Shown here: piece after piece, positions 1 through 46,872 of the stretch
Numbering within the stretch: position 1 is the first letter of the stretch
Layout of the letters: each line of letters begins with the position of its first letter
IMG/VR virus record: IMGVR_UViG_3300030012_002034
Location: 1 to 64,000 of that record
From: a virus
DNA length: 64,000 nucleotides
Reading direction: 5' to 3' (one strand)
Made by a program: the position numbers and the translations under genes
The notes under the pieces: generated by a model
Database searches by the model: none
The model's input: the letters and a program-made list of their open reading frames with translations, nothing else
Told to the model about the DNA's origin: nothing

Positions 1-1346
1 TGTATTCTTTTACCTAATACTACTGACTCATGAAGACTTTTTACAAAATTATATGCTCTGGCTTGATAGTTCATATCTTTACTTTCCATTACATTTAGCA
101 ATTGCTCTTGATCTTCTTTAGAAAGATCTAATGTTTGAACAGAACGCAAAGAGTTTTTAATTGCTTTAATGCTATCAAGTACTTTTGTTTCTTCAAGTAC
201 TTTTCTTATCTCATCATTATTCTTTAATAAGTATCTATTTAATTCTGAGAACTGACCATAAAAATTATTAATAGTATTTTGTAAAGATTCAGGTGTTATA
301 TTTTTAATTTCTTCTAACATCTGAGTATTCTCATCTCTAAACTCTGCAATGTCAAGAGGTGTTAACATACTAGTATCTACAACAAAGTCTCCTTTTAATA
401 GTATATCAGTTAACTCACCAATTGTAGTATCAGTATTTAGCTTTTTTAAGTTTAATTTCTTAGCAAGCTTTCTTATAACTTGTTTAAGAGCAAACAATAG
501 TCCTTTGATAAAACTATTAAAAGACTGATCATCTGACTTAATCTTATTCATTTTATTATCACCGTCTTTTTCAATAGCCCGGATTATAGCTTCTTCTTTA
601 AACCTAGGAGTACCTTCTTCCAACACTCCTGACTTTTTTAATATTTCTATTATACCCTGTCCTGTAACACTAGTTTCCAAGTGAGAATATAATCTATCAA
701 ATAGTTTAGGATTATCTATTTGAATAGCTTTTAAAAATGGATGGGCATACTCATGAAGAACAGTAGCTGCATCAAACTTATCTTTGACAAGAAATACTTT
801 ATTATTAAAGTAAAACCCTGATTGATTATTATAAGGAGTAGAAGTATCTTTAAGTATCTCTCTAGCTTCATCTGAAGTAATTACTTCATTCTCAATACCA
901 AAAGCTTTAGTATATTTATCAGCCAACGCACTTGCTATTTTAGCATCTCTAGTTTTTTTCTGTAGCTCTTCAGTTAATGAAAATGCTTCAAACCTTTGTC
1001 TATCTATCTCATTATCATACTGTTCTGAAAGATCATCAAATAAGTATCTATCTGAGTAAGCAGTCCCTGCTCTTTCCGCATCTTCCATTAACATCTCTCT
1101 AGCTTGAGATTCTTCAATACGTAATTCTTTATCATAGTAAGCATCAATCATTTCTGATGGTACATTAACAGATACCATTGAGCCTATATCAGGATCATTA
1201 AAAAGGTCTAGCACCTTAAATTCCATATCTCTATTAAACTTTCTTACACCAGATAAAGCAGCATTATAGTTTAAGCCATTAAGATACTGACTAGTATTTT
1301 CTATCTCTTTTTGAAGTTCTTTCTTTATTTTTATTCTACAAGGCAT
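1..1346 (-). CDS. Large polyvalent/ejection-type protein, N-terminal part, with zincin-like metallopeptidase motif; runs off the window edge and is absent from the ORF track
   Basis: ATG at 1346 (MPCRIKIKKELQKEIEN...). The parts I translated by hand, including the last codons at the window edge, are open. GFYFNNKVFLV...TVLHEYAHPF (HExxH at 741-755) is followed by EEAIIRAI. It lies 18 nt downstream of the RNAP gene stop. Confidence 0.85.
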   Translation of the reverse strand, partial: MPCRIKIKKELQKEIENTSQYLNGLNYNAALSGVRKFNRDMEFKVLDLFNDPDIGSMVSVNVPSEMIDAYYDKELRIEESQAREMLMEDAERAGTAYSDRYLFDDLSEQYDNEIDRQRFEAFSLTEELQKKTRDAKIASALADKYTKAFGIENEVITSDEAREILKDTSTPYNNQSGFYFNNKVFLVKDKFDAATVLHEYAHPFLKAIQIDNPKLFDRLYSHLETSVTGQGIIEILKKSGVLEEGTPRFKEEAIIRAIEKDGDNKMNKIKSDDQSFNSFIKGLLFALKQVIRKLAKKLNLKKLNTDTTIGELTDILLKGDFVVDTSMLTPLDIAEFRDENTQMLEEIKNITPESLQNTINNFYGQFSELNRYLLKNNDEIRKVLEETKVLDSIKAIKNSLRSVQTLDLSKEDQEQLLNVMESKDMNYQARAYNFVKSLHESVVLGKRI

Positions 1347-1364
1347 TGTTTAAATATAGTTAAA

Positions 1365-4300
1365 TTATGTACATGTTTTACCAGTAAATTTAATAAAAGG
1401 TCCATTACCAACTTGATAACCACCTTGATCAGCATAATATTGAGATGCTAAATCTATAGATATATCAAATCTTGCTTTCTCTTCTTCATTCATTACTCTT
1501 CTTAGTGCTTCATAAGTTGCACGGAATTCCATTTTTAATTTATCAGGTGTAAGTAAATCTTTACCTTCTTTCCAATAAACAGAAATATCATTATTATCTA
1601 TATGATTTTGTTCATGATAAACTAAGAAATCATTTATCTTATCTGTAGTATTTAATATTTTTTTCATATCATCTAATGATATATTAAAATCATCAAACAT
1701 TTTTAATACCTGTTTCTTTTGTTCGGATGTAATTCCTTTTTTAGCTCCCGTAAAATATTCAAAGAATTCATCTACAGATTCTACTGGATTTAGTTTAATT
1801 GTTTTTCCGTCAGTACCTGCTAACCTTTTAGTACCGTTTTTATTCTTAAGATTTCTATCTATAGTATAGTTAATTTCTCCTAGAGTTCCTGTCTCACCAG
1901 CTGGTTGAGCATCTTCTTCCACAACATTGGGTATATATCTGTTATAATCCCATAGATCTTTAAGTCTTGCAAACTTAAGTTTAGCAGTAAAGACATCTGT
2001 CCAATTAGCTAACTGAATTACATCACCATCTTTTGTAGTATAATCAAAAGGTTTTTTCTGATTATATTTTTCATAACTAAAAAAGTCAATAGCCTTAGCT
2101 TCTACTCCTTCTATTACTTCTTCAGATTTAGTATAAGTCTTTTGATCTTTACCTACGTAATCAGTAGTTTCTATTCTATATGTTCCTTCAACTTTACCAG
2201 TCTTTTTATTTACAACATCGTAGTTTTCTAACATTACTCTACTAGTACCATCTTTAGCTTGAACAGTTACTGTTCTAAAATTAGAAATTTTATATCCTGC
2301 TGGTGGTAACATATATGTATCTGTTACATAACCTTCTCCTTCAATGTCTCTTAAGAATACAGCATCAGGATAAACTTTTTCAAACTTAGATTTAGTTTCT
2401 GTTCTTGTAAATGGAGATATCCAATCTATATCATGTAAAGGATTTTCTTCAGGTCTTAGTACGGTTCCTTGTTCTGCTAATGCAGTACTACCTGTAAGTA
2501 TAAAACCTTCTTTACTAAGTCTTTTAACTATACTTGAACCAAACTTATCTGTTTCTAAAGCTTGTTCAATTGTTACTAACTTAGTTGGTTTACCATATTC
2601 TCCCGGTTTATATTTATTACCTGTAATTAAATCCACGTTTTGTTGTAAGATATTATTAGTAATAATTCCAATATTTGTATTAATCAATTCAATATTAACA
2701 CCTTCTCTTAATGTTTTAAAGAACTGCTTAACTAATTGTGCTATCTTACCTAATAGTGATTTACTATACTCACCTTTACTTTTATTTCTTAGATCTTCAT
2801 TTATAAGTTTACCAACTATTTTAAAATACTTGTCTTTATCTTTTATAGATCTATAATCAGTAGTTCCTGCTAGCTCACGTATAATATCTTTTACTAGTGG
2901 ATTATACTGCATCATGTATGCAATAAATTCTCCAGCTACATCAGGTAAAGCATCTCTATCTTTTACATATGCAACTTTATTTAAAATATCAGCAAAACCT
3001 ATATCATCAATAGCAAGTTTAGATTTAATTTGATTTATATCTTTAACTTTTATTCCAAAAGATTTTAAGTATGTTTCAAGAACTTTAGATGTATCTTTAC
3101 CTGCTTTCTTAATAGAAGCACCGTCTATATTAACGGGAGTATTTATTACTTCACCTTTAGGCACACTTTGTACTATATCAAAAATACTATCATTATATTC
3201 TTTTAATTCTGCACCTGTTAATACTCCAATGTCTCCCTTACTATTGAGTATGCCTTCTTCTTGTTTTCCAAAGATTCTACTAACAATATTTGGATTTGAT
3301 GTAGCTAAATATTTAGTCATTTCCTCTCCTCGTAAGTTATGTCTAAACCCTCTAGTAGAAACAGTATAACCGCTTCTTTTATATTTATCTCTTACATCTT
3401 TAGGAACAAAATGTATAAAGTCTAATCCTGAATCTACAATAGCAGGAATAGCCTCAGCTAAAAATTGCTTACTGCTTGGAGAAGATGTTACTCTATTTAC
3501 AAATACAGCATTATCATAATCATAATTTCCAAACATATAAGTATCCTTAAATTTATAAACAGAAAGCCTTTTTATAAAGTTTAAGAATTTTTCTTTTGTC
3601 ATTTCTTTACGGCCAGGAACCTTTGTTATTAATGCTACATAATCGTTATAAAGTTTATTTTGAAATGTCACATCATTATTAAAATTAGGAACTAATTCAT
3701 AGATGTTTCTTTTTAATACATTAGAAGCATCTGTTATAGGTGGATTCTCAAACTCTCCTTGTTCTTGAAAATCTATTTCACTATCAAATGATTCTTCTAT
3801 TACAGGTTCTACAGGATTATCAGTTAAATAATTTTGGAAGTTTCTAGATGATAACATTCTATTATAAATATCATTAAGTTCAGCTGTTATACTATAACCA
3901 TCTAAGAAATTTTTATTAGTTGTATCCAAGAAATTTTGACTAGCTGTTTTCATTAAACTTATATAAGCAGATGTATCAATAACATTATTAAAGTTTAATC
4001 TACTAAATCCTTTACCATGTTGGTATATCATGTTTAAAGAAAATAAATTAAATATCTGAGATATATCCTCATTGGTTTGTAGATCTTTTACTTTAGATAT
4101 AGAAACATTAGCTAATTGTTTTATCTCATTATTATATTTATCAGCTAAATCCGGATCATTACTTACAACATCTCTATTATTTAAATCTAGTACCTTTTCA
4201 CTGTTCTCTAATGGTAATGATGCAAGAGATAAGTTATCAGCTATTTCAAAATATTTATCTAAACCAAATTGGTTAATGGTGTCTAATATTAATTGTGAAT

Positions 4301-7300
4301 AAGAAATATCAGATGTCCCCATAATAAAACTTCTATTATAAGAATTCATTAAACTTCTTTCTGCAATAAATTTAATGTATGCTGTTTTCTTATTTTCTTT
4401 TAAAAACTGCTTGTATCTAAAATTAGTAATCTTACTTTTATCAGAATATTTATTTTTTACAAATACTTCTTTTAGTTTATATTTTACATATGTACCATAG
4501 TCATCAAAAGTTATATTAAAAGCAAATCCTTTTCCTCTACGTTTTTCATATCTATCTTTTAATTTTGTATCGTTAACATATATTATTCCATCTTTTAAAC
4601 TTATTGCTTCTTTATTAGTATCACTTACATTTACAGGTAAATTATTAGAAAACTCAGGATATATTACTATATTTCCTTTAGCATCAGTTTCTCTAGATAA
4701 AAGATTTTGTAGTAAATAATCTGAAATAGCATTAGTAAAAGAAGCTGTAAATACTTCTTCTCCGTCTACTCCTTTTCCAAATCTTGCTTTTAATGCTTTA
4801 TTTTGTCTATAACCCAGTAACTTACCAGTTATAAAACTATTAATATCATTACTAAAGTTCAAATCAAATACCTCTGATGTAATGTCATACATAATATCAT
4901 TTACATTAAAGCCAGATAATATAGATTCCTCAAGAAGTTTTCTTACGGACTCAGGATTTAAATCTCTTCTATCATATATCATTTGAAGTGCAGAGTATTG
5001 TTTATTTACTTGCTGCGCTGTTTTAATAAATGTAGTATCTGGTGTTGAAATAGATTGTATTTCTCTTAGACCTTGAGTTTGTCTTTGAATGTTATAATAC
5101 TGAGCTAGCATAGCTAAAGATTCTTTAGATGTTATATCTTTTTTTAAACCTTTCTCTAGTCTGTCCTGTGTAAGATTTTCTGTTACTCCTAAATCTCTAA
5201 ATAATAATTCTGATACAACATTTGGAGATGTTTCTATAGCTTTTGCTAAGTTTCCAACCATCTTAGCTTTAGGATTTGTAGCCTTATTAAATTTATTTAC
5301 CCTAGCTGTAATCTCCATAGCTACTTTAGGGTCTACTATTCTTGATAATACATTTGATAAAGCACGTTGTTCAGCAGAACCTTTTCCAGAAGTAGGATGA
5401 AGGACAGAATATGGACCATTAAGTTTAGCAATCTCTTGTATATATTCCTTAACTAAAGGTTGGTTTAAGAATGTAAATACTGTATCACTAGGTACACCAG
5501 CTTCTATCATATAGTTTAATACATTAATACTTTCTGGAGTAGCTCCTAACGTAAATGTAAAAGGATCTTTAGCTCTATCTAATATAGCATTTAGTAAATG
5601 TGAAAATATTTCTGATATGTTTTCTCCTTCTGTATTATATTTACCAGCTAAAGATATTGCACCATTAGTTGTATTATGATTAAACTTCATAGTAAAGATA
5701 CCAGGCATTTGAAAGTTTATTTGCTTATATATAGGATGCATTTTATTTTTCAATGCTACAATTCCTAGAGTAATAGCACCTACTAGATTTACCTTATGTT
5801 GATATAAGTTATAACCTAATTCTAAAGTTCGTGTAGGACTTATACTCTTATTACCTTTTTGATTGGTTCTTTCTTCATCAAATACATTTTCAAATCTATC
5901 ATAACCTTCTTCTGCTTCTTCAAGAGTTTCTACAGCTCGTTTGACTAAATGAATATTATTTGGTCTAACTAAGTTGACATAGTTATCTTTTAGTAAGAGA
6001 ACATCTTTAATAGATCTTACAAGCTCATTATGAAGAGCATCTTTTTGTCTTCCTAATATTTTTGAAGTTGACTCCTCTCCTTTTTCTATCTCTGCTTGTA
6101 AATCATCTTTACTTAATACTGTTTTAATTAAATTTCCTTGTCTATCTATCTTTGGAAATAATTCAAATAACTTATCAACATCAAAGTCAGATCCTGCTTT
6201 AGCTACAATCTCTGTAGGAACTATAATTTTATTTCCTTCTTGAGGATTTAAGAAATGATAAATTTCAAATATTTCATTTGAGTTTGTAGCATCAATAGGA
6301 ATCCTAGGACCTAGAATAGTTATTGACTCTCTATGGTCTGCTTTATTTAACCATACTTCATCTTTAATCATTTCATTAAGTCTATCAATATTACCTATAG
6401 GTTCTCCATCATTATGTTTGAGATTTAAAAGATTTATAAAATCTCCTTGTAAAGCTATAACTGCTTGAGCAGGTAAAGTTTTTCCTGTCTTAGGATCTAT
6501 TCTATAATATTGTAAACCATTAGTTCCATTCTCTTCTCCTGGACTTAACCATAAATCTTTATCTAATGTAACCGGAGTTTGTATTAAAGGTTCACCATAT
6601 ACTTTTTGTTTAACTAATCTCTTTTGTATTATTCCTAACAAAGCTTTCATTACATCATCTGATTTAGGATGTATAGAAAGATCTATAAACTTTTCACCAC
6701 TTGGTGTAGTATTAATTAACTTTAATAAGTTATAAGGAAGATTCTTCTGCTCCATTTCATTTTGTAACAATCTCATTAAATTAGTCATGTTACCTTTTGA
6801 AATATATTTATCTTGTTCCGCATCATACTTAAAATCTATCTGAGCTAATAACTCATCCTTTAAGATATTGTTATACTTATTAACAGCATTAGTATAGTTT
6901 GATACAGCCTTTCTAGCTTGAGCACTTATGGATCCTCCTCTTTCAAATAATCCATCTAATAATATACCTCTTAACTGAGTAGGAAAAGTTACTTTACCTT
7001 TATACTGGTCATTAACTTTAGTTACCTCCTTTAAGTTTTGCATATAAATAGTGTTAGGAGTAAACATTGTTTCTCCTTCTACTAGATCTTTTATTTCTGT
7101 TTGAGTATTATCAGTATAAATATCATCTGAGTTTGCTTCTTCATTAGAAGATATTCCACCAACTTTATTACCTGATTCAAATGTTACATATTGAATACCT
7201 TCTTTCATCATTTGTTTATGTAACTTCTCTTTTTGTTTTGATGAACTTCCTGGTATAATAGGAGACAATGCAAATTTATGCATAGATGTAACTACCGCTT

Positions 7301-10300
7301 CATTAAAATCTAAGGCTCCATAATGATGTAACTTATATACAGGAAAGTAAGTATTTATTTGTCTTGGGCTAATAGTTTCACCATTAGCTATTCTTTGAAA
7401 CAAATTTTCTTGTTCATTAGTCCACTTGTTCTGTAACTTTTTAAGAGTTCTATATGCATCAAAAGTAATATAACCATGACCGTCAGATTCCTCCATACCT
7501 AAGTAAGTATCTGCATCTGTGTTTACTAACTTATCAATTTCTTTTTGTGATAGTTTAGGAAAGCGTTCTTTATAATCAGCTTCTAAAGCTTTTTTTATTT
7601 CATCTATAAAATCACTATCTTTTTCAGAGTCTTTTATAATAGCTGTATTTAACTTACCTCTATATTGAAAAGGAGCTATACCTTCTTTAGATAGTCTAGA
7701 TGCATAACTTTTTTGATTCCAAACTTCATTAATAAAGTTTATTGCGTTTTGATCATAAAGAAAACCTTCTCCACCAGATTGTCCACCAGGTGTACGCTTT
7801 TGCATATGTTCTTTACTATGATCAAACTGCACCATATTACCATGTAATAAGTGTATAACTTCAAAGTTATGTATCCAGTTATTTATAGTATAAGCTGACA
7901 TTAATGTATTAATAAGTTGCTTCTTAACTTTAGGGTCTGTAGAATTATAATTTTCTACTCCGGATTTTTCTTTAAGACTTTTACTTAGATAAGGAGCTTT
8001 ATTATAATAATTAGTTATATTATTTTTAACCCTATTTTGAATGTACTCCATTATATCAGCTCTAATCTTTTTATTAAGAGCTGATCCTTCATCAGTCATT
8101 AAATAGTTTTCTATTTTTACTGCAGGATCTAATTGTAACTTATATAACTCATTTTTAGTAGAGTCTCTTAAAATATTATCAAATGCAGTAAAGGTGTTAC
8201 CAGCATATCTATTACCTATTGGTCTATTATACCCGGCCAATCTTAAATACAACTCTTTATTTGCATCAAACATTTTTATTCTATCAAACTCAACTGCCAT
8301 TGCAGGAATAAATAGTTTATCAATTGAGTATCTCATACCCTCACTAATACCAGGGTCTTCAGACTCTTGATTAAACATGTCTATATCCACATAAAGATTT
8401 TTATCTGTCCCTTGAGTTTTCATTAAACCTCCTTGAACTTTTAGACCATAAGAAGCTTTCTTATCGGCAGGTCTAGTATTTTCTTTTATACCATTAAGTA
8501 AAAGAGTATGCATATCTTGCGTAAACTTTTCTACATCTGTAAGATCAGAAGTTACTTTACTATTAGTTTTATTATCTTGTATATTAATACCAGATGTAAT
8601 AAAAAGATCAAAAGTTTTATTAGCTCTCTTATCAAAGGTTCCTTCTTTAACTCTATATACAGAGTTTAATAAATGAGATCTTTTAGTAAAAGGATTTATA
8701 TTAGGATTAAGATAAGATAAAAAGTCATACTCTGATTCTTCTTTATTAGAATTAGTTTTTTGCCAAGTATCATTTCTTAAATTACCTAGTTCATTTAATC
8801 CTGCCACAGTCATTGTCATGTTACTATCTAGTACATGAGGGAATATTCTTTCTCCATCAGCTGCAAGTAAACCATAGTTCTTAGATACACTTCCATATTT
8901 AGATTGCAACTTAGCAAGTTCTTTAATAGACCCGCTTTGACTCACTCCTCTTTTAAGATTTTTACTTAATAAAACTCCTGCAGGAATATCATCTACTAAT
9001 GTTTCAACAGGATTTTGTTTAAACTTATATAAGTACTCAAACTGTTTTTCTGTAAGATTATCCCTATACTCAAGTTCATTAAAATCTTTTACTGTCTGAA
9101 ATATAAATGGTATACCAAACTTACTTTCATTTTCTACATTAGTAAGTTCTGTTTTAATCCTTTGTATATCATCTAATTCTATTCCTAATGTATTTAAGAA
9201 TTCATAATAGTCTTCTTCTCTTAATCCTTTTTTATCAAATCTTTTAACTAAAGCATCTAGATTTAACATTGGAGTATTAGTACCTTCTACTATTGAGATG
9301 TATTCATTAGCATTCTTAGTCTTGAACATTCTTTGAAAATCTCTAAGGATCGCATCTGTATCTATATCAGATTCAGTAACTTCTACGTTACCATCTTTAA
9401 ATACACTTAACTGATAATACTTAATTGCAGACTTTTTAAATGTTTGCCAGAAGCTAGCAATTGCATCAAACTCAAACTCATTAGTAGTATTTTCAGGTTT
9501 AGGTAACTTATATTTTATAAGTTGTTTTAATTCAGGAAATTCTTCAGATGCTTTTTCAATTTCTTGATACATCTTCATAGGATTCTTAATACCTGATATT
9601 CTATTAGTAAGTGTTGCCCAAACTCTTTTAAAATCTGCAAGTTCATTAACTCCTAAATAGTTCTTAGATGTATTTCCGTTTGCGTCTACTTTATGAAGAC
9701 TTTTTAAAATGTATATTACTTCTCTTTCAGCCATTTCAACTAATGACTTTTTACCAATCTCTTTTCCAAACTTTTCAGAACTTGGATCATTACTATCTTG
9801 TTCATCTTCTTCTAATGCTTCTTCCTCTAATATATTTTTATTTAATATAGGGAATGTAGAATTATCATAATAGTACTTAAGTGTTCCTTGTTTAGATGTT
9901 GTCCAGTTACCAAGAGCTGTTTCTAAGATTCTTATTTTATTTAATAAGTTTTGCTGATCTCTTGTTATTTCAATCTCAGGAAGTTTGTTCTCTAATATTT
10001 GAAGTTCACCATATTTTTTTGCTCTTGATTTTAAATTACTTGTTTGCTTAATAACTTCTGTAATGTTATTAGCTACAATAATTCCTACAGGATTTTTACC
10101 TGACTTAATATTTTTATGTGTATAAAAATCTGATATGATATCTATACCATAGAAGTTTTCACCAAAAGATCTTTCTCCTCTTTTAATATCAGCATTTAAG
10201 TTTTTAAAAGAATTTACTTGACTTCTAAAAAAGAAATACTTATCAGATGCAGGAGTTCTTTCTCCTGTCTCAGGATCTACTGCTTCTAAAACAGCAACCG

Positions 10301-13300
10301 CATTCTCCTTAATATCTTTCATGCTATCAATAGCATCAAAAGAAGGCATCTTAGTTTCTCTAGCTAACTTGTCTGTATTAGTTTTTAATATTTTTTTTAA
10401 TTTTTCTCTTACTTCCTCTACTACAATTTTTCTATTTTGAGGATTTAAAACTAAATTTAAAGTAGTAGACTTAGAACTTTTCTCCCCGGCCTTTGCCATA
10501 TCTTTTGACAGCTCATCAACAACTTCAGAGAATAAACTATCCATTGTAGATACAATTAGTTTAGAATCAGCATCATTTAATGCATCTTCTCTTCTATTAT
10601 CTACTTGTCTAATACCTCTATTTAATTGAAGAAACTCTGAATTCTTAACTGAAGGAGTATAATCTGCTAATAAGCTAGGGTCAGAACTAGACAAATATAA
10701 CCTAGAGTATAATTCATTAACAGCTGGTATACTCATTACATCTATGTTAGCAGCTTTGCTACTATTCTTAAATGCTTTTCCAAAAAGAGCTTTTAAAAAG
10801 TTTAAGATTTTTCTGAATATAGTATTACGCTTTGGTCTATTCTTTTTTATCTTAGGATTTTTAGCATAGCTTCTAAATTCTTCTGCTAAAATTTCTTCTA
10901 TTTGATAGTTAGAGTAATCTTTATATTTAGCATTACTGTTTCTTACTTCATCATATAAAGCTTTTCTTTGTTCAGGAGTTAAATACAATTGAGAGAATCC
11001 ATGCCAAGCTTCATGATAAATATCAACAGCTGTTCCTTTATCAAATACTTTTATAGTACCTAATGTAGAATCTGATAAAGCAGATGCATTTACAACAAAC
11101 TCTGCAAACTGACCTGAGTTAACTATATCAGTTATTTTTTCTAGACTTATTACTTTACTTAAAGGTGATGTACTCCACCATTTAACAGCATCTTCTATTT
11201 GTTTCTTAGTTACATTGTCAGGATCATAACCTTCTCTTTTTAAACTACTCCAATCTCCTTCCTTTTTAAATCTCTCTAATAATCTACCTGAGCTATTTGT
11301 AACATTTTGATTTGGATTAGGCTCTAAGTTAGAATCTATATTATCTGCTTTATTCTGATTTTCTTTAGATGCAGATTCTTTTCTTTTTTCCTCTTCTATT
11401 TTTTTTAGTTCTTCATCAGTATACCAAGGAACATCATCTTCTGTTTCAAGGATCTCTGTTAAATTTTGAGCATCTACTACTTCTTTTGCTTTAGATAAAC
11501 TTTCATTTAAAGCAGAATATGGATTCTTAAATGCAATAGACATATTATAAAATCCAGGATTAAGAGTATTTAACTTAACATTAATTCTATCTCCTATACT
11601 CATTAGAAATTCTCTAAAGTCCGTAGGTACTAGCTCTCCATCTATTAATCTTAAAAAAGGTTTAGTCTCTTGAACTATTGCTTCATTGTATATACCAACG
11701 GTGGGTCTCCAATTAGCAGGAGCTAAGTTTGTAGAATTATTATTGAGTGATGCATTCTTCCAATAGTAACCTTTTGCTAAAACAGTTTTAACAGCTTTGG
11801 CTGCATTTTCTCTTTGAGCTTTATTACTTAGTTTATCTTTACTTAATTCAATTATAATAGGCTTTTTACCTGATTCATCTATAATCTGAAAAGTACCATC
11901 CGTATTAATTTTATAGTTTCTTTGAGACTTACTTACATTATTATTTAAAAACTGATCAAGAAAAGCTTTTCTTTCAGATTTTGAAAATTTAGGATTAGTT
12001 ACAACCTCTGCTATTTCATTAATTAATTCCTCAGTAAGAATATATCTTTCTAATGCAAAGTTATTTCCATTTAAAGTAATATAAGCAGAACCAGAAAGAT
12101 TTACGTTTCTTGTTTTATTATTAGAAATTTTTATACTTTGTATAACTCTTTTTATATTGTTATCATTATTAGAATTAGTAGAGTTATTTAAAGCTTTTGA
12201 TAATACATCTAAAGATATATCAGGATTTACTAGTTCATCAGACATACCTTCTGTTATTCCTTGTATGTCAACAAGCATTGAATGATTTTTATTTTCCTTT
12301 CCTAAGAATTCTTTTTTAATTTTAGAAAGTATATCAGCTCTCTCATCTAAATATTCTTTTGCTTCTTCAACAGTAATTCCTAATCTTTTAGATAAAGCTT
12401 GAGGAGACATTATTCTTTCTTCTTTACCATAAATATCAGTTATCTTTGTACCGCTTTTATCTGTTCTTACATCTCTTAAAAATTGAAATACTACTTTACC
12501 ATCACTTCTTGATTCTGCATAAGAACCATCTTCAGTAAAGAATACAGGTTGTCCAAACTCATCTGCTATAATAGCAATAACTCTTTCATTAGCTTGAGTT
12601 ACTTCTTTACGTGCATCTCCTCTTTTTAATCTAGCAAAAGATTCTATAGCTTCTTGTTGTACAGATGCTGGTAATAAATCTCTTGTTTGTGAATTTGTAA
12701 CAAATGCATCAAACCTTACAAACTTTAATTTTAAAGTTTTAGTTTGTCCTGATAAATCGGTATAAGAAAAAGCTTGAGGACCAGTTCCTTCAAGTGTGTT
12801 ACTTAACTTTAGATTAGCTAAAGTATTTACTATAGTAGTTTGACTTGGATCTAGTTCTTGTATTTCAAGAGCATTACTGTTAGGCTTTTTTTTAACAAGG
12901 TTCTGTCCTGTAGTAGTTAAAGGATTATCAGACTGTCCTCTAAATATTTCTTTTTTAGGTTCTTTAGCAGGATCTTGTTCAACTAAAACAGGATTATTAT
13001 TATCTTGCTCATTAGTTGCTGCATCAAATAATACTTGTTTAGGATCTACAGAAAAGTTTTTTACAATCAAATCTATGCCTGTATCAGGATTTAAATATTC
13101 TAATGATAATTTTCTTAATTTATTTAAATCTAAATCTTGGCTTAAATCATCTTCAGCTATATATATCATAGATATCATCTTAGGTATAGGTTGAATAAAC
13201 TGAGCTGCTTGTTCTGCAGAACCTGTTTCTTCTTTAACCATATCAAATATATCTTGCATATAAGTATCCGGATCAAAGTTTTTATTTTCAAACATATCTC

Positions 13301-13358
13301 CAGCAATATCTGTATATAAAGCTTTTATTTGCTCATTATCTAGTGCACACTTAATCAT
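1365..13358 (-). CDS. Giant virion-packaged DNA-dependent RNA polymerase (crAss-like, phi14:2 gp66-type) fused to zincin and nucleotidyltransferase-like domains
   Basis: 3997 aa. AKAGSDFDVDKL carries the catalytic DxDxD (6174-6188), preceded by GPRIP and PTEIV. Zincin motifs IYHEAWH (11001-11015) and VYHEQNH occur, plus NTase motifs near the C-terminus. It sits among giant genes after the tail module. Confidence 0.85.
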   Translation of the reverse strand: MIKCALDNEQIKALYTDIAGDMFENKNFDPDTYMQDIFDMVKEETGSAEQAAQFIQPIPKMISMIYIAEDDLSQDLDLNKLRKLSLEYLNPDTGIDLIVKNFSVDPKQVLFDAATNEQDNNNPVLVEQDPAKEPKKEIFRGQSDNPLTTTGQNLVKKKPNSNALEIQELDPSQTTIVNTLANLKLSNTLEGTGPQAFSYTDLSGQTKTLKLKFVRFDAFVTNSQTRDLLPASVQQEAIESFARLKRGDARKEVTQANERVIAIIADEFGQPVFFTEDGSYAESRSDGKVVFQFLRDVRTDKSGTKITDIYGKEERIMSPQALSKRLGITVEEAKEYLDERADILSKIKKEFLGKENKNHSMLVDIQGITEGMSDELVNPDISLDVLSKALNNSTNSNNDNNIKRVIQSIKISNNKTRNVNLSGSAYITLNGNNFALERYILTEELINEIAEVVTNPKFSKSERKAFLDQFLNNNVSKSQRNYKINTDGTFQIIDESGKKPIIIELSKDKLSNKAQRENAAKAVKTVLAKGYYWKNASLNNNSTNLAPANWRPTVGIYNEAIVQETKPFLRLIDGELVPTDFREFLMSIGDRINVKLNTLNPGFYNMSIAFKNPYSALNESLSKAKEVVDAQNLTEILETEDDVPWYTDEELKKIEEEKRKESASKENQNKADNIDSNLEPNPNQNVTNSSGRLLERFKKEGDWSSLKREGYDPDNVTKKQIEDAVKWWSTSPLSKVISLEKITDIVNSGQFAEFVVNASALSDSTLGTIKVFDKGTAVDIYHEAWHGFSQLYLTPEQRKALYDEVRNSNAKYKDYSNYQIEEILAEEFRSYAKNPKIKKNRPKRNTIFRKILNFLKALFGKAFKNSSKAANIDVMSIPAVNELYSRLYLSSSDPSLLADYTPSVKNSEFLQLNRGIRQVDNRREDALNDADSKLIVSTMDSLFSEVVDELSKDMAKAGEKSSKSTTLNLVLNPQNRKIVVEEVREKLKKILKTNTDKLARETKMPSFDAIDSMKDIKENAVAVLEAVDPETGERTPASDKYFFFRSQVNSFKNLNADIKRGERSFGENFYGIDIISDFYTHKNIKSGKNPVGIIVANNITEVIKQTSNLKSRAKKYGELQILENKLPEIEITRDQQNLLNKIRILETALGNWTTSKQGTLKYYYDNSTFPILNKNILEEEALEEDEQDSNDPSSEKFGKEIGKKSLVEMAEREVIYILKSLHKVDANGNTSKNYLGVNELADFKRVWATLTNRISGIKNPMKMYQEIEKASEEFPELKQLIKYKLPKPENTTNEFEFDAIASFWQTFKKSAIKYYQLSVFKDGNVEVTESDIDTDAILRDFQRMFKTKNANEYISIVEGTNTPMLNLDALVKRFDKKGLREEDYYEFLNTLGIELDDIQRIKTELTNVENESKFGIPFIFQTVKDFNELEYRDNLTEKQFEYLYKFKQNPVETLVDDIPAGVLLSKNLKRGVSQSGSIKELAKLQSKYGSVSKNYGLLAADGERIFPHVLDSNMTMTVAGLNELGNLRNDTWQKTNSNKEESEYDFLSYLNPNINPFTKRSHLLNSVYRVKEGTFDKRANKTFDLFITSGINIQDNKTNSKVTSDLTDVEKFTQDMHTLLLNGIKENTRPADKKASYGLKVQGGLMKTQGTDKNLYVDIDMFNQESEDPGISEGMRYSIDKLFIPAMAVEFDRIKMFDANKELYLRLAGYNRPIGNRYAGNTFTAFDNILRDSTKNELYKLQLDPAVKIENYLMTDEGSALNKKIRADIMEYIQNRVKNNITNYYNKAPYLSKSLKEKSGVENYNSTDPKVKKQLINTLMSAYTINNWIHNFEVIHLLHGNMVQFDHSKEHMQKRTPGGQSGGEGFLYDQNAINFINEVWNQKSYASRLSKEGIAPFQYRGKLNTAIIKDSEKDSDFIDEIKKALEADYKERFPKLSQKEIDKLVNTDADTYLGMEESDGHGYITFDAYRTLKKLQNKWTNEQENLFQRIANGETISPRQINTYFPVYKLHHYGALDFNEAVVTSMHKFALSPIIPGSSSKQKEKLHKQMMKEGIQYVTFESGNKVGGISSNEEANSDDIYTDNTQTEIKDLVEGETMFTPNTIYMQNLKEVTKVNDQYKGKVTFPTQLRGILLDGLFERGGSISAQARKAVSNYTNAVNKYNNILKDELLAQIDFKYDAEQDKYISKGNMTNLMRLLQNEMEQKNLPYNLLKLINTTPSGEKFIDLSIHPKSDDVMKALLGIIQKRLVKQKVYGEPLIQTPVTLDKDLWLSPGEENGTNGLQYYRIDPKTGKTLPAQAVIALQGDFINLLNLKHNDGEPIGNIDRLNEMIKDEVWLNKADHRESITILGPRIPIDATNSNEIFEIYHFLNPQEGNKIIVPTEIVAKAGSDFDVDKLFELFPKIDRQGNLIKTVLSKDDLQAEIEKGEESTSKILGRQKDALHNELVRSIKDVLLLKDNYVNLVRPNNIHLVKRAVETLEEAEEGYDRFENVFDEERTNQKGNKSISPTRTLELGYNLYQHKVNLVGAITLGIVALKNKMHPIYKQINFQMPGIFTMKFNHNTTNGAISLAGKYNTEGENISEIFSHLLNAILDRAKDPFTFTLGATPESINVLNYMIEAGVPSDTVFTFLNQPLVKEYIQEIAKLNGPYSVLHPTSGKGSAEQRALSNVLSRIVDPKVAMEITARVNKFNKATNPKAKMVGNLAKAIETSPNVVSELLFRDLGVTENLTQDRLEKGLKKDITSKESLAMLAQYYNIQRQTQGLREIQSISTPDTTFIKTAQQVNKQYSALQMIYDRRDLNPESVRKLLEESILSGFNVNDIMYDITSEVFDLNFSNDINSFITGKLLGYRQNKALKARFGKGVDGEEVFTASFTNAISDYLLQNLLSRETDAKGNIVIYPEFSNNLPVNVSDTNKEAISLKDGIIYVNDTKLKDRYEKRRGKGFAFNITFDDYGTYVKYKLKEVFVKNKYSDKSKITNFRYKQFLKENKKTAYIKFIAERSLMNSYNRSFIMGTSDISYSQLILDTINQFGLDKYFEIADNLSLASLPLENSEKVLDLNNRDVVSNDPDLADKYNNEIKQLANVSISKVKDLQTNEDISQIFNLFSLNMIYQHGKGFSRLNFNNVIDTSAYISLMKTASQNFLDTTNKNFLDGYSITAELNDIYNRMLSSRNFQNYLTDNPVEPVIEESFDSEIDFQEQGEFENPPITDASNVLKRNIYELVPNFNNDVTFQNKLYNDYVALITKVPGRKEMTKEKFLNFIKRLSVYKFKDTYMFGNYDYDNAVFVNRVTSSPSSKQFLAEAIPAIVDSGLDFIHFVPKDVRDKYKRSGYTVSTRGFRHNLRGEEMTKYLATSNPNIVSRIFGKQEEGILNSKGDIGVLTGAELKEYNDSIFDIVQSVPKGEVINTPVNIDGASIKKAGKDTSKVLETYLKSFGIKVKDINQIKSKLAIDDIGFADILNKVAYVKDRDALPDVAGEFIAYMMQYNPLVKDIIRELAGTTDYRSIKDKDKYFKIVGKLINEDLRNKSKGEYSKSLLGKIAQLVKQFFKTLREGVNIELINTNIGIITNNILQQNVDLITGNKYKPGEYGKPTKLVTIEQALETDKFGSSIVKRLSKEGFILTGSTALAEQGTVLRPEENPLHDIDWISPFTRTETKSKFEKVYPDAVFLRDIEGEGYVTDTYMLPPAGYKISNFRTVTVQAKDGTSRVMLENYDVVNKKTGKVEGTYRIETTDYVGKDQKTYTKSEEVIEGVEAKAIDFFSYEKYNQKKPFDYTTKDGDVIQLANWTDVFTAKLKFARLKDLWDYNRYIPNVVEEDAQPAGETGTLGEINYTIDRNLKNKNGTKRLAGTDGKTIKLNPVESVDEFFEYFTGAKKGITSEQKKQVLKMFDDFNISLDDMKKILNTTDKINDFLVYHEQNHIDNNDISVYWKEGKDLLTPDKLKMEFRATYEALRRVMNEEEKARFDISIDLASQYYADQGGYQVGNGPFIKFTGKTCT

Positions 13359-16300
13359 TTTCCTCTCTTTTTACACTTTATTAGATCTTTTAAACTACTC
13401 TTTCTTTCTTCTTTATTCTTTTTCTTTGCATCCTCTCTTGCTTTAGTTTGAGATTCAGGATCACCTAGAAAATCTTCACTAACTTTCTTAGATTGTTTAA
13501 CATCTGTTTTTTCCTGTTTAGTCATAGGTTTTGTTTTTTCTACTTCAGTGTTTACTAAAGCTGGTAATGTATAGTTCTTTTCTAGTTCTCCAAATGTAGC
13601 ACTATATTTTTTATTTTTACCATTAATAACTATGTTTAATTCTGCACCATCTTTGGTCATCTTTTCTATAGTCACAGTAGAGTTTGTAAGCTTGTCATAG
13701 TTCCATTTACCTGGGCCTAGTTTTGGTCTTATCTTACCTGTTACAATAAGAGTAGTTCCTTCTTTATAGATCTCACTCTTAGGAATAGCTGGACCGTCTA
13801 GTGTTGTTTCTTCTTTTTTAGTTGATACACTAAGTTCTTTAAATCTTTCTTCAACCAAGGGGAATAAAACTTCTTCTTGAATTTGTATAGGAATGTTACC
13901 GTATTTAGAAGATAGATCTAACATAATGTTAGACAACTCATTAGCTTCTGCTTTAGCAATAGCAGCTTTTGCTTTCTCTACTCTTTTATTAATAGCTTCA
14001 TTCTCACTTAATTCTATTTTAGTAGCTTCAGGATCTTGTTCACCTTTTTTAACTTCAGGTTTAACAGGAGCTTTTTTAGTTTCTTTTTTAGTTTCTACAG
14101 GAGTTTCTTCTTTTTCTGCAGCTACTTGTTTTTCCTTCTCAGCTATTTCTTGCTTAAGTTCTTTTATTCTTGCTTCTATTTGTGGAGTACCTAAGTTCTT
14201 TTCAACTAGTTTTTCTTCATTAGCTAGTGAAGCTTTTAAAGCATCTACCTCTTGTTCTAGTTTAGATTTCTCAGGAGCTTTTTCAGGAGCTTTCTTTTTA
14301 ACTTCTTCTTTAACACCAAGTTTCTTCTTAATAGATTTAAAGTTATCTCTTATATAACTATTAATTAAGTTATTCTTTTGTTGTTGACTGGTAGATTCTT
14401 TATATTGAGTACCATAGTCTTCATCTTGTTGCATCTCTTCAAAGACTTCTTTATAAACTCTAGGAGATAATCTTCTTAAGTTTGTAGCAGTAGGATCATT
14501 TGTAAATCTTCCAATACTAGTTTCTTGATTCTTTTCAAAGTTTTCAACTAATTCTTTTTCAAGAGCTTCATATTTCTTTTCTATCTTAGCAACTTCTTTA
14601 GCATCTCTTTCTATAGTTGTTGTATATCTTATAGCCTTTTCAAAACTATCATCCATCTCATTAACAATCTCTCCAGCTTGGTTAACTAAGTTTCCATTTT
14701 CTTTTCTAAGAGTTACCTTATCTTTTGATTGAGCAATAGTAGCTACTATTCTTTCTCCTTCTAATGCTTTAGATTGTATAGCTCCTATTTTAAAACTTGT
14801 TAAAGGTCTTTCAGGTAGTATAACTTCTACCTCTACTTGTTTTTCTACTCCTTCTAATGCTTCAATTTCTTTTCTTTTTCTTTCTTTAAGCTCATTTATT
14901 TTTTCTTGTAAGAAATCTTTTTCTCCTGCTTCTTCTTCTACAGATAGTTTTTTAAGATCTTTATTTTGAATTAATAAGAAAAGAGCTGCATTATATTCTT
15001 TAGTACCTTTAGTGTATACTTGTTTAGTACTATTTTTAATAAAGTATTCTGGCAACACTCCTTCATCCATAAATAATCTAAATGCTGCAGGCTCCATAAG
15101 TAAATTATACTGAGAATATAATGCATTTAACACTGCATTATTTTCTATATCTGCTATCTGATTATTTACTATATTATCAAAGTATTCTTTTTTATTTTCA
15201 TAAACCCTGGTCATCCACTCTTCATTTCTCTCAACATGATTTAAGAAACCTTTAGGGTTATGCATAAGATTTACATAATAAGCAAGTACTTGTTTTTCAT
15301 CTTCTAGTTTAGAATAATCAACTACATCTTCAAAAGCTTTTTCTATTTGTTCATCAAATACAATTTCTTTATTACTATCAGCAATAAAATTAATATACTT
15401 AGAGAAAGCTTTTTTGAATTCAAGCGTAACTTTATTATCATTAGTTTCATTTCTTTCTAATACACCTTCCTTCTTTAACTTTGCTATATCTTCTTTGTTT
15501 ACAGGAACATCTTCTACAATCTTACCTTTATCATCATAAACTTTTTTTCTTCCTTCCTCAACTACAATCTTATCTTTCTTAAAATACTTATTAAAAGTTT
15601 CTTTTGCTTTTTGAAACTCTTTTAAAATTTCTATTTTTTCATTATTCTTTTTAACAATCTTTTTAGACTCCTCATCTGTTAGTCCTTCAAGTGAAGAATT
15701 TTCTCCTGTAAGTAAACTTATTTCTGCAACTAATGCATCTTCATCTAGCATTACCTGAACATCATTACTAGTTATGTTCTTTAAAGGTCCTTTTGCAGTT
15801 AGATTATTAGCAATGCTTACCATTCTTTTAGCCACATCATTATAAGATTCACGGTAAAATACAGCTTGTTTTTTAGCTTCTCTCCATGCCATATGTAGCA
15901 TTGCAGCTTGTTTATATTCTTGTGAGTCTGTATCAGGAAATTTACTAAGATCTACAGGATCAGGAAATCTCTCTTCATAGAATTCATAATGTCTTTTAAT
16001 CTCTTTAGCATTATCTATTACTGTATCAATTTTAGACTGATATTCTTCTCCTGTTCCTTTTTCAAAACCAAATGTTTTTTCAAACTCATCTGCTGGAAGT
16101 TCTTTCATTGAATCTAAATGATCAATAAAAATATCAAAAGATCCTTTATCTAAACTCATATTAACCATAGAAATAAGAGCTTCATTTTCAGCATCTCCTT
16201 TTTCTTTAGTAGTACCGTTTTGTTTTACTTGACCTACAGCATTTTGTACAGAGTAGTTAAATAATCTAGAGTCAAATAGTTTTACAGGATCTGCATATAA

Positions 16301-18190
16301 AGCATTCAAACTAGCAGCAGCTTGTTCGCCAAACTGTTTTCTTACTTTTTTGTATTCTTCATATTTTTTCTTATCTCCAAAATATTTATTATATCCTTTA
16401 CTCATTGCAGGTATAGCAGCATTTAATGGTCCTGCAAACATACCCATGAAGAAACCTGATGCAAAAGTTTCAAATCCTTGTTCACCAAGTTGACTAGATA
16501 CAGCATTTTGAAAGTATTGTTTTTTTGTAGCGTAGTCATAAGAACCTTCAGCAAAATGAAATGCTTCTCTATTCTTTTGTTTAAATGAATCTACAAAATA
16601 ATTTTCATAATAATTAGAACTTATCTCTTGAGCAACTTCTTGAAAACCTTCAGTAAAGTTAGCTTTAAAATAACCTAGTCCTCCTTTTATAGATTTTCTA
16701 AGAGGATCCTTAGCAAATGATTTTAAAGTGTTTGTTAGACTATTTTCTGCATATTTAAACTTACCTCCTATACCTCCTTTTTTAGGAGTCCATTTTAAAG
16801 ATCCGTGTTTAAAAGATTTAATGTCATCAATCTTAGATCCTAAGAAACTTCTTATACCACCTTTTGGTCCTGTTATATTTGGGAATACTAATTTATTAGT
16901 ACCAAAAATTAAAGCAGTATTAAATGCCATATTTGAAGTAGCTGCAGTATTAGCTTGTTGAGTAAAGTTCCATTGAACATCATTATCTGGAGTTACTCCA
17001 TTAGCTCTATAGTAATCTTCATAAAGTCTATTATATACTTTATTTTTTGTAAAGCCTCCTTCCAATCTAGATTCTGCAAGAGCCATGTTTACATTTCTTA
17101 CATCTCTATAAAATGCACCTACTGTTTTTGCACCTTTAGCTAAACTAGTTAGATTATCAACTTTATTAAAAGATCTTACAGCATCTATAGTATTTTCAAT
17201 AGGATTAACAAGTCTTCCTACTGAACTCATAGCTCTACCTGTTCTAGTACCATTCCAAAAAGTTTTAGCTCCTTTATATGTGTTTACACTTTTTAATGTA
17301 TTATTAATACCTTTAGCCATATCAACACCGGTTCCAATACCTTTTATAGATTTTAATCTACTTCCAAGTTTTCCTAATACAGCTCCTGTTCCAAGTAAAC
17401 TAGCTCCTCCTGTTGCGGGAGCTAATAATCCAAGAGCAGCTTCTTCTACTAGTGCTTCAGTCATAATACCAGCAGTGTATCCAAAGTTCATCAGTGTATT
17501 ATTAAAGAATGCACCAAGTCCACCTTTAGTTGACTGTCCAATTGCTGCAGCTCTTTCATAAGCTTCAGCATCTTCTGTATCAGGAGAAAAGTCAAATTCA
17601 GTTACTATCTTGTATAAACTTTTAGGACCAGAAACAAAACCTCTAGTAGCTAATGGTAAAAAAGAATTAGACATCATTCTACTAAGATCATCCCAACCTG
17701 TAGTATGTTTATTATATAAAGATTCATTATCACGGAAAGGATGAAATCCTAACTCTTGTATTTTCTCACTTCCATAACCTGCATATCTATCATAGAAAGC
17801 ATCTCCATCAGGTCCATCATTATAAGAATATATCTTACCATATGTATTCCTCTTTTGGATAGTGCTTGTAAGTGCTTGCACTTCTCTTCCTAAATTTTGT
17901 GCATATGCTACTCGTGCTCCATAAGAAGTATCAATATCGTCAGGATCATTTTTAACTTTTTTTACAGGAGGTTGATTAGGAGGGTTACCTACAACCTTTT
18001 GTCTTACTTGTTGCTGAGGTCTATATAAACCTGTTGGTGGAGTAATAGGAATCTCAGATTGAGGATCAATAATATTATCTCCTTCAAATGCTTGATAACT
18101 TGTTGGATCAACATTAGTAGGATTTAGATTGCCGTATTGTGGTCCTAACTCATCAAGTGGACTTACTGGTATGTTTTCTTCCTCTGCCAT
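13355..18190 (-). CDS. Large virion cargo/ejection protein
   Basis: 1611 aa. Gly/Ala-rich hydrophobic stretches (AALGLLAPATGGASLLGTGAVLG; FASGFFMGMFAGPL), an EGFQE motif and a charged coiled-coil C-terminal half. Directly upstream of the RNAP gene. Confidence 0.65.
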   Translation of the reverse strand: MAEEENIPVSPLDELGPQYGNLNPTNVDPTSYQAFEGDNIIDPQSEIPITPPTGLYRPQQQVRQKVVGNPPNQPPVKKVKNDPDDIDTSYGARVAYAQNLGREVQALTSTIQKRNTYGKIYSYNDGPDGDAFYDRYAGYGSEKIQELGFHPFRDNESLYNKHTTGWDDLSRMMSNSFLPLATRGFVSGPKSLYKIVTEFDFSPDTEDAEAYERAAAIGQSTKGGLGAFFNNTLMNFGYTAGIMTEALVEEAALGLLAPATGGASLLGTGAVLGKLGSRLKSIKGIGTGVDMAKGINNTLKSVNTYKGAKTFWNGTRTGRAMSSVGRLVNPIENTIDAVRSFNKVDNLTSLAKGAKTVGAFYRDVRNVNMALAESRLEGGFTKNKVYNRLYEDYYRANGVTPDNDVQWNFTQQANTAATSNMAFNTALIFGTNKLVFPNITGPKGGIRSFLGSKIDDIKSFKHGSLKWTPKKGGIGGKFKYAENSLTNTLKSFAKDPLRKSIKGGLGYFKANFTEGFQEVAQEISSNYYENYFVDSFKQKNREAFHFAEGSYDYATKKQYFQNAVSSQLGEQGFETFASGFFMGMFAGPLNAAIPAMSKGYNKYFGDKKKYEEYKKVRKQFGEQAAASLNALYADPVKLFDSRLFNYSVQNAVGQVKQNGTTKEKGDAENEALISMVNMSLDKGSFDIFIDHLDSMKELPADEFEKTFGFEKGTGEEYQSKIDTVIDNAKEIKRHYEFYEERFPDPVDLSKFPDTDSQEYKQAAMLHMAWREAKKQAVFYRESYNDVAKRMVSIANNLTAKGPLKNITSNDVQVMLDEDALVAEISLLTGENSSLEGLTDEESKKIVKKNNEKIEILKEFQKAKETFNKYFKKDKIVVEEGRKKVYDDKGKIVEDVPVNKEDIAKLKKEGVLERNETNDNKVTLEFKKAFSKYINFIADSNKEIVFDEQIEKAFEDVVDYSKLEDEKQVLAYYVNLMHNPKGFLNHVERNEEWMTRVYENKKEYFDNIVNNQIADIENNAVLNALYSQYNLLMEPAAFRLFMDEGVLPEYFIKNSTKQVYTKGTKEYNAALFLLIQNKDLKKLSVEEEAGEKDFLQEKINELKERKRKEIEALEGVEKQVEVEVILPERPLTSFKIGAIQSKALEGERIVATIAQSKDKVTLRKENGNLVNQAGEIVNEMDDSFEKAIRYTTTIERDAKEVAKIEKKYEALEKELVENFEKNQETSIGRFTNDPTATNLRRLSPRVYKEVFEEMQQDEDYGTQYKESTSQQQKNNLINSYIRDNFKSIKKKLGVKEEVKKKAPEKAPEKSKLEQEVDALKASLANEEKLVEKNLGTPQIEARIKELKQEIAEKEKQVAAEKEETPVETKKETKKAPVKPEVKKGEQDPEATKIELSENEAINKRVEKAKAAIAKAEANELSNIMLDLSSKYGNIPIQIQEEVLFPLVEERFKELSVSTKKEETTLDGPAIPKSEIYKEGTTLIVTGKIRPKLGPGKWNYDKLTNSTVTIEKMTKDGAELNIVINGKNKKYSATFGELEKNYTLPALVNTEVEKTKPMTKQEKTDVKQSKKVSEDFLGDPESQTKAREDAKKKNKEERKSSLKDLIKCKKRGK

Positions 18191-44271: not shown

Positions 44272-44283
44272 AGTCTTTATATT

Positions 44284-44297
44284 TATAATATAGTTAT
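44284..44297 (-). promoter_or_regulatory. Candidate late-promoter motif
   Basis: AACTATATTATA upstream of the 630-aa fibre gene. Confidence 0.4.
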
Positions 44298-44302
44298 AAT
44301 TC

Positions 44303-46144: not shown

Positions 46145-46150
46145 TTTATA

Positions 46151-46309
46151 TTAAGTTGTTTCCTCTCTTCTTTTAATTGCTTTTAATTTTAAGTCTTCTT
46201 CATATTTAGATGCGCACATATTACATACTTTTGTGCCATCTGAAGCAGTTCTTAATTGACAACTACAATTCATTGTAGCTCCGCAGTTTGGACATCTTGA
46301 CGTTCCCAT
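46151..46309 (-). CDS. Small Cys-rich (Zn-ribbon-like) protein, 52 aa, absent from the ORF track
   Basis: MGTSRCPNCGATMNCSCQLRTASDGTKVCNMCASKYEEDLKLKAIKRREETT. It fills the intergenic gap and has an AACCAACAAA leader. Confidence 0.75.
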   Translation of the reverse strand: MGTSRCPNCGATMNCSCQLRTASDGTKVCNMCASKYEEDLKLKAIKRREETT

Positions 46310-46329
46310 AGTTTGTTGGTTTTATTTAT

Positions 46330-46872
46330 TTAACAATTAGTACAATTCATCTTTCCTAATAACTTACACGCATAATTATATAATGTCATTCCTTTTTGAG
46401 GTTCATGACAATATTCTACTTTAGCTTTTGCTGCTTCAAGATACATTTTAATTAAACGTAATTGCTCCAGTTTTTTCTTTATATCAGCTGGAGGGTCACA
46501 AGCAGATACATCAATATCACACAATATTTTATTATATTTTATTAATGCATCAGTAATTCTTAAATGATTATAAGTAACAAATACTACATCATTTGGTGAT
46601 ACACTATATTTTATAATGTATACTCCATCGGGAAGATTAGCATATTTTTCACCGCAATCTTCTGTCTGTAGGTTTAAATCACAGGCAGTTATAGTTTTAG
46701 TAAAATTTTCTGTAACATTTAACTGTATAGAAAATCCATATCCAGGAACAGTAATATTTAAATGTGTACAGTTTACATCAATTAAACTTGAATAAACACT
46801 TGTATCTACAACTCTCATTATACATGAGTTCATAACTGTAGGCACTTCTAAACTTAATACGTGATTTGCCAT
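46330..46872 (-). CDS. Structural protein (tail hub/adaptor-like)
   Basis: 180 aa with NLPDGVYIIKYSVSP, a motif I recall from crAss-like tail hub genes, and a helical Cys-containing C-terminus. Confidence 0.5.
   Translation of the reverse strand: MANHVLSLEVPTVMNSCIMRVVDTSVYSSLIDVNCTHLNITVPGYGFSIQLNVTENFTKTITACDLNLQTEDCGEKYANLPDGVYIIKYSVSPNDVVFVTYNHLRITDALIKYNKILCDIDVSACDPPADIKKKLEQLRLIKMYLEAAKAKVEYCHEPQKGMTLYNYACKLLGKMNCTNC

Follow-up and report, generated by a model that had tools for sequence, protein, structure and literature searches.

Terminal cysteines facing one another across the gene junctions of a giant virion RNA polymerase module in a distant crAss-like phage

The locus examined here raises the question of why three consecutive giant proteins, which together span 7592 residues, should hold only 4 cysteines (Cys), and why each of these should lie where the tail of one protein meets the head of the next. 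The proteins, designated A, B and C, are encoded in the window, that is, the 64,000-nucleotide stretch corresponding to positions 1-64,000 of the IMG/VR virus record IMGVR_UViG_3300030012_002034. By sequence comparison, they are the crAss-type virion RNA polymerase (RNAP) module gp67-gp66-gp65, encoded by the last three genes of the virion operon. The full record comprises 107,381 bp and is circularly permuted, with a 98-bp terminal direct repeat (window 1-98 corresponds to genome 107283-107380). Because the record ends repeat these 98 bp, the last open reading frame (ORF) of the module (start at 1346) wraps to genome position 102674.

Cysteine content and identity of the three-protein module

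Every Cys was listed from translations of all the ORFs in the window. The four giant ORFs, encoding A, B, C and a protein of 1189 amino acids (aa) directly upstream of them, all lie on the minus strand. The three chain members and their Cys codons are the following:

13355..18190, minus strand: protein A, gp67-like, 1611 aa, first chain member; sole Cys C1606
1365..13358, minus strand: protein B, virion RNAP fused to extra domains, 3997 aa; only Cys C4 and C3996
1..1346, minus strand: protein C, gp65/gp49-like, first 448 aa of 1984, the rest at genome 102674-107282; sole Cys C3
13373..13375, minus strand: Cys1606 of A, TGT codon, sixth residue from the C-terminus (LIKCKKRGK)
13347..13349, minus strand: Cys4 of B, TGT codon (MIKC)
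1371..1373, minus strand: Cys3996 of B, TGT codon, penultimate residue (GKTCT)
1338..1340, minus strand: Cys3 of C, TGT codon (MPC)

All 4 Cys are thus found at most 6 residues from termini that face a gene junction, and at the first of these junctions the stop of A and the start of B overlap in an ATGA (13355-13358). The initial annotation, made by eye, had described this layout for the 1611-aa and 3997-aa proteins and had noted the MPC start of the next one. Exact translation agrees with it, all the codon coordinates given there were correct, and the exact computation that it had suggested yields the total of 4 once the wrapped protein C is included. The 1189-aa protein, which had been taken to be Cys-free, contains 0 Cys on translation.

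The Cys pattern of the module is highly non-random. Other proteins of the genome contain approximately 1-1.2% Cys, which would lead to about 90 Cys in 7592 residues. Base composition as the cause of this scarcity was ruled out by the out-of-frame counts: TGY triplets amount to 0-2 per giant gene in frame versus 7-188 in the other two frames, with 26-87 expected from base composition. For 4 uniformly placed Cys, the probability of finding one in each of four junction-facing windows of 6 residues is ~9e-12. Outside the chain, facing terminal Cys were detected about once per genome in four related genomes, and only between small Cys-rich proteins. The rarity of internal Cys, on which the initial annotation had leaned, extends to the homologues, internal Cys being found at a frequency of 0.013% in 62 of them.

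The identity of the module was established protein by protein. Protein A shows 36% identity over 1237 aa to a 2382-aa protein of a related genome (G003_2382), which in turn matches gp67 of phage phi14:2 (E 1.6e-9); it is because of this transitive match that A is considered gp67-like. Protein B matches phi14:2 gp66 (E 2.7e-16) and crAss001 gp50 (E 9e-14) by blastp and carries a DFDVD motif that aligns with the same motif in G002, G003, G004, G005, gp66 and gp50. Motif and homology together bear out its earlier designation as an RNAP. Protein C matches crAss001 gp49 by blastp (E 6.5e-5), and a LysM domain was found in its wrapped part. Three internal features are relevant for the comparisons below:

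6174..6188, minus strand: DFDVD catalytic motif of the two-barrel RNAP, B residues 2391-2395; the motif aligns across relatives
1923..3728, minus strand: B residues 3211-3812, a conserved ~600-aa module carrying a GSTAL...HDIDW motif
741..755, minus strand: HEYAH zincin metalloprotease motif, C residues 198-202; H198, E199 and H202 invariant in 28 homologues

Cys3 of C stands immediately before helix 1 of a domain of ~100 aa that was confidently folded in the AlphaFold2 (AF2) model (predicted local distance difference test score, pLDDT, 88-96), for which Foldseek returned nothing significant. The AF2 model of B residues 3200-3997 was mediocre (pLDDT 59.6) and gave weak Foldseek matches of GNAT-like and nucleotidyltransferase-like type. 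The GSTAL...HDIDW motif of the 600-aa module is itself nucleotidyltransferase-like, a GNAT-like subdomain is possible from the weak Foldseek rows, and in some relatives Pfam domains NADAR, ART or NDK are added. Searches of A and B against Pfam and PHROGs, a sequence search of the PDB with B, and a megablast of 20 kb together with a tblastn of the B C-terminus against cultured phages gave no match.

Conservation of the terminal cysteines and their coupling to breaks in the chain

Terminal Cys were compared in IMG/VR loci and in whole related records. In the following layouts, C-1 denotes the last residue, C-2 the penultimate one, and so on, and a slash marks a gene junction:

G003: 2382 aa (C-1) / 4075 aa (C10, or C5 from a later Met; C-3) / 1953 aa (C3)
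G002: 5145 aa (C-3) / 1436 aa (C5)
G004: 4685 aa (C-2) / 1581 aa (C3)
G005: partial, at least 2789 aa (C-2) / 2616 aa (C4)
phi14:2: gp67 (last residue) / gp66 (C3, C-2) / gp65 (C3)
crAss001: gp47 (C-3), gp50 (C5, C-9, one internal), gp49 (C5)
DAC15: layout as in crAss001
Fpv1: gp33 (C-2) / gp34 (C3)
Lbo-JY46: 1552 aa (last residue) / 2748 aa (C4)

The loci L006, L008, L010, L012, L040 and L042 are alike in terminal-Cys layout, and all the junctions examined in G001-G005, L006, L008, L010, L012, L040-L042, phi14:2, crAss001, DAC15, Fpv1 and Lbo-JY46 were found to be paired; the gp055/gp056 junction of IAS virus was left out on account of N bases in the record at that point. The outer ends of the chain are devoid of Cys in 9 out of 9 first-protein N-termini and 16 out of 16 last-protein C-termini, and the numbers of N- and C-terminal Cys are equal in each complete module. 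Altogether, the rule holds in approximately 340 relatives. In the distant relative G002, a 1186-aa protein encoded upstream of the cargo block (13539-17099, plus strand) starts with MGCGCSKG and has a Cys-rich N-terminus.

Family-wide counts, corresponding to the tabulation of terminal and internal Cys in orthologues that the initial annotation had proposed, revealed that the terminal residues are kept in the A and C families down to ~25% identity. The 120 proteins of the A family (255,745 aa) have 119 Cys in total; the last 6 residues account for 118 of these, and the N-termini for none. In 118 of the 120 proteins this is the sole Cys, and in the tails of the family it follows a conserved acidic amphipathic motif. 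The C family, sampled as 50% representatives of at least 1400 aa, comprises 119 proteins with 257,122 aa and 165 Cys; a Cys is found at positions 2-9 in 113 of the 119 and at the C-terminus in none. The 62 proteins bearing the 600-aa module (198,298 aa) have 90 Cys, 65 of which lie within 10 residues of an end and 25 internally, 12 of the latter in one protein. P0004 and P0015, two exceptions without any Cys, come from gene calls truncated at the N-terminus.

The codons of the terminal Cys vary (TGT in 38 cases, TGC in 8), as do their positions, and the gp47-type gene of crAss001 and of DAC15 has the opposite orientation to the gp50- and gp49-type genes. Since codon and position are variable and partners can be encoded on opposite strands, selection would act on the protein residue; a nucleotide signal at the junctions was discarded on the same grounds.

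The presence of the pairs follows the presence of breaks in the chain. Among 39 longer A homologues, which are mostly A+B fusions with a DFDxD motif near residue 3500, 37 carry the C-terminal Cys alone, and none of the A+B fusions has a Cys at the fusion point. Likewise, the joint of G002_5145, which combines gp67-like and gp66-like parts, is without Cys. A B+C fusion of 4860 aa (P0050) has zero Cys, as has a protein of 5635 aa that spans the polymerase and C (P0062); P0050 is also without the C head domain and the last ~40 residues of B. The opposite event was detected in L041, where the C-type protein is split and a new pair has appeared at the new break, consisting of a 782-aa protein ending in Cys and a following 1122-aa protein with C4, whereas unsplit homologues have the N-terminal Cys only. 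Furthermore, the 600-aa module is found on the B side of the B/C junction in the window and on the C side in G005-type phages, and the Cys pair stays at the junction. A displacement of the break point in G005 had been considered; since conservation extends to the N-terminal head of C (G004_1581, G005_2616, gp65), this reading was replaced by a switch of the module from one side to the other.

Because the pairs vanish on fusion, appear on splitting and are absent from the outer ends, the comparison strongly supports the view that facing terminal Cys are functional partners. The initial annotation had suggested that they could be linked head to tail. This interpretation is supported in part: conservation and the coupling to gene fusion and fission speak for the partnership, and a disulfide between such residues has been seen in cyanopodophage A4.

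The terminal-Cys rule also has consequences for gene calls. The zincin protein of crAssphage ZA and of crAss002 has its terminal Cys at C-2, and the RNAP ORFs (L043, crAssphage ZA, MK238400; L048, crAss002, MN917146) contain an internal Met-Ser-Cys 21-32 codons past the annotated start. As this internal Met-Ser-Cys fits the rule, the annotated RNAP starts of both phages are probably too far upstream. In the ZA record, ORFs are annotated from stop to stop, with non-ATG starts.

A possible disulfide-linked string and its alternatives

We infer, with a probability of about 0.6, that Cys1606 of A is joined to Cys4 of B, and Cys3996 of B to Cys3 of C, by inter-protein disulfides that would turn the three proteins into one covalent A-B-C string. 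The closest precedent comes from the pre-ejectosome of cyanopodophage A4 (Anabaena phage A-4L), in which a disulfide between gp27 Cys1715 and gp26 Cys5 was resolved by cryo-electron microscopy (PNAS 2025, PMC12002296). A, B and C have been purged of Cys like other proteins ejected through a narrow tail, and under this proposal the disulfides would form once the three are docked inside the particle. The resulting string of ~7600 residues would copy both the single polypeptide of the fused relatives and the N4 polymerase, whose layout has been likened to beads on a string (2026 N4 paper). A link from C-terminus to N-terminus, close to the ends and replaceable by a peptide bond, would suit a thread moving through a narrow channel, or a tether. 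The expected consequences would be a fixed 1:1:1 stoichiometry and order, as well as continuity while the tail is being threaded or while the polymerase is tethered to envelope-spanning parts. Protein C may bind peptidoglycan via its LysM domain, in which case a tether would keep the polymerase joined to envelope-bound partners until A, B and C are separated, presumably by reduction in the cytoplasm.

It could be argued that the disulfides exist and merely staple a pre-formed docking interface, stabilizing the particle outside the cell without any part in the order or mechanics of ejection. As described by the A4 authors, their bond stabilizes a helix at the C-terminus of one protein, which docks into a cleft of its neighbour (PMC12002296), and the acidic amphipathic motif ending in Cys of the A-family tails recalls this docked helix of gp27. 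The predicted head domain of C that starts at Cys3 is consistent with such an interface, and the loss of both this domain and the last B residues in the B+C fusion P0050 fits a docking unit needed only where the chain is broken. However, a staple alone would leave unexplained why the link constantly runs from C-terminus to N-terminus near the chain ends, mimicking a peptide bond, and why fusion is an accepted substitute for it; this explanation is regarded as unlikely, though as the most probable of the alternatives. That the terminal thiols pair in some other way, as homodimers (C-C or N-N) or with the portal, the tail or another cargo protein, appears improbable. Some relatives do have terminal Cys lacking a facing partner, and the tail proteins of the phage are Cys-rich (up to 8.5%), but with each new break one Cys is gained at the C-terminus and one at the N-terminus, both are lost on fusion, their numbers match in every complete module, and the A4 bond is heterotypic.

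A similarly low probability is assigned to the idea that the Cys stay reduced and serve other chemistry, such as a bridging metal, acylation, or recognition and processing by the zincin protease near the junction. The zincin domain lies ~160 residues from Cys3 of C, and cleavage of the fused polyproteins has been assumed (bioRxiv 10.1101/2020.03.07.982082). Nevertheless, there is one thiol per terminus with no conserved His, Cys or Asp nearby, so that the shared metal offered as an alternative by the initial annotation is unlikely; free thiols would meet periplasmic oxidases, which is the published reason for the Cys purge (PMC11445570); and strict pairing would remain unexplained. Hardly any weight is left for a lack of function, in which unconstrained termini would tolerate Cys or the TGY codons would act as a nucleotide signal for translational coupling. 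It is true that little space separates the genes at the junctions, where they overlap in an ATGA or leave a short gap, but the family counts, together with the invariable absence of Cys from the outer ends, already contradict a lack of function, and the variation in codon, position and strand argues against a signal.

Several observations weigh against the disulfide-linked A-B-C string itself. The cargo was not resolved in the crAss001 map. Gut hosts are anaerobic, and an oxidant is therefore not assured; in the reducing cytoplasm, the bond could not direct the early stages of packaging. Orphan terminal Cys, which face no partner, are present in a 795-aa protein of crAssphage ZA (C-2; L043 2737-5124), in crAss002 gp30 (C-8; L048 456-2129) and in Lbo-JY46 XAI97385 (C5; L050 29334-31358), and several internal Cys are tolerated in gut crAss phages. 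Finally, no homologues of A4 gp26 or gp27 were found among the chain proteins by blastp (E < 0.1), nor did the N-terminal model of C match them in Foldseek. In crAssphage ZA, two thioredoxin-like genes lie beside the polymerase block (L043 28078-29357), a link of which to disulfide reduction would be pure speculation.

A broader and more tentative proposal, to which we give somewhat less than even odds, is that terminal Cys pairs are reversible stand-ins for peptide bonds. In that case, injected proteins would be joined into one covalent thread by crAss-like phages and, as an independent development, by at least one cyanopodophage; this thread would either be delivered in fixed order or hold the polymerase to an envelope-spanning channel as a DNA-pulling motor, and would be cut by the reducing cytoplasm. 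If true, the three crAss proteins would be the split equivalent of the N-terminal domain (NTD), core and C-terminal domain (CTD) of the N4 polymerase; the 2026 N4 paper raises the question of how these parts of the N4 enzyme correspond to the three proteins associated with the crAss polymerase. The authors of the crAss001 structure paper state that the cargo has to unfold in part, describe the ejection order as not understood, and name as an open question how and in which order several megadaltons of crAss-like phage protein are packed and delivered. A Cys pair per chain break offers a concrete and cheap test in cultured phages (phi14:2, crAss001, DAC15, Fpv1, Lbo-JY46). For annotation, the rule could help to find true start codons, as with the internal Met-Ser-Cys mentioned above, to recognize giant proteins belonging to one chain, and to tell real gene fissions from sequencing breaks.

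Neighbouring genes and comparison with known systems

Portal, terminase and major head protein of the phage were identified by PHROGs matches, and the 1770-aa protein encoded upstream of the module is a crassvirus muzzle protein (PF25731, E 5.6e-26). The portal shows 22-34% identity to portals of Crassvirales, Cellulophaga and Flavobacterium phages and Leptolyngbya phage Lbo-JY46. By these homologies, the phage is a distant crAss-like virus. Seven giant proteins are encoded behind the muzzle gene (window 18192-39485 plus protein C), with 12,870 aa or ~36% of the genome coding length. The one directly upstream of the chain is the following:

18192..21761, minus strand: 1189-aa protein, 0 Cys, directly upstream of the chain

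This protein shows 55% identity to a Cys-free 971-aa protein of G003 and, being without terminal Cys, is outside the linked set. Elsewhere in the cargo block, the Cys have evident roles. A 1494-aa protein (29689-34173, minus strand) contains a YkuD L,D-transpeptidase-like domain (residues 1083-1194, E 3.5e-5), and its only two Cys (1191 and 1196) lie in SYGCINGIC at the end of this domain, likely the catalytic site, which suggests a peptidoglycan-active ejected enzyme. In a 916-aa protein (21825-24575, minus strand), the only Cys are eight in four CxxC/CxC pairs (residues 357-411), a cluster that looks like a small metal-binding knuckle. The proteins of the tail region (42379-48900, minus strand) are Cys-rich, with 52 Cys in 613 aa (8.5%), 11 in 183 aa and 19 in 630 aa, and the head proteins (538 and 435 aa) have 0 Cys.

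The nearest known counterparts of the module are gp67-gp66-gp65 of phi14:2 and gp47-gp50-gp49 of crAss001, which are homologous to A, B and C and share the DFDxD polymerase, the zincin-bearing partner and an identical terminal-Cys layout. The proteins of the window (1611, 3997 and 1984 aa) are much larger, and B has the extra module of ~600 aa. The structure of phi14:2 gp66 has been published (Drobysheva et al. 2021), and the module proteins were found in phi14:2 and crAss001 virions by mass spectrometry; delivery to the host is known only for these two phages, on evidence from mass spectrometry and from early transcription that resists rifampicin. Fused polyproteins, but neither cysteines nor any link, are mentioned in the paper on the phi14:2 polymerase (bioRxiv 10.1101/2020.03.07.982082). 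In the crAss001 structure paper, disulfides are described for proteins of the tail and the portal vertex, including disulfide-bonded tail hubs (PMC10172136), with the cargo cysteines and any link between cargo proteins unmentioned. Among the papers searched, none states a terminal-Cys rule for crAss-like phages.

Schitoviridae (N4 gp50-gp52, DEV gp71-gp73; PMC11445570, PMC13434306) resemble the phage studied here in having a giant virion polymerase and partners that are nearly Cys-free: N4 gp50-52 contain 0 Cys in 4294 aa, and the published Cys figure for gp71 homologues is 0.00075% (PMC11445570). The reason given for Cys suppression in their ejection operons is passage, unfolded, through the oxidizing periplasm (PMC11445570). 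Their polymerase is, however, a single-chain T7-like enzyme without terminal Cys, in contrast to the two-barrel type encoded here by three genes with a Cys pair per break.

In A4, as here, the sole C-terminal Cys of one ejection protein faces the sole N-terminal Cys of the next; in the A-4L record, Cys1715, third from the C-terminus, and Cys5 are the only Cys of proteins of 1717 and 1114 aa. Because neither sequence nor fold match was obtained, this resemblance is one of layout, not ancestry. A4 differs in being a T7-like podophage (41.7 kb) whose chain has a single link and lacks a polymerase, with five copies set around the portal, and the paper describing it states no general rule and draws no link to gene fusion or fission (PMC12002296). 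Thus, Cys-purged ejection proteins and a terminal disulfide of the A4 type were already known, and the arrangement described here adds to them a chain of two links, centred on the polymerase, whose Cys pairs track gene fission and fusion.

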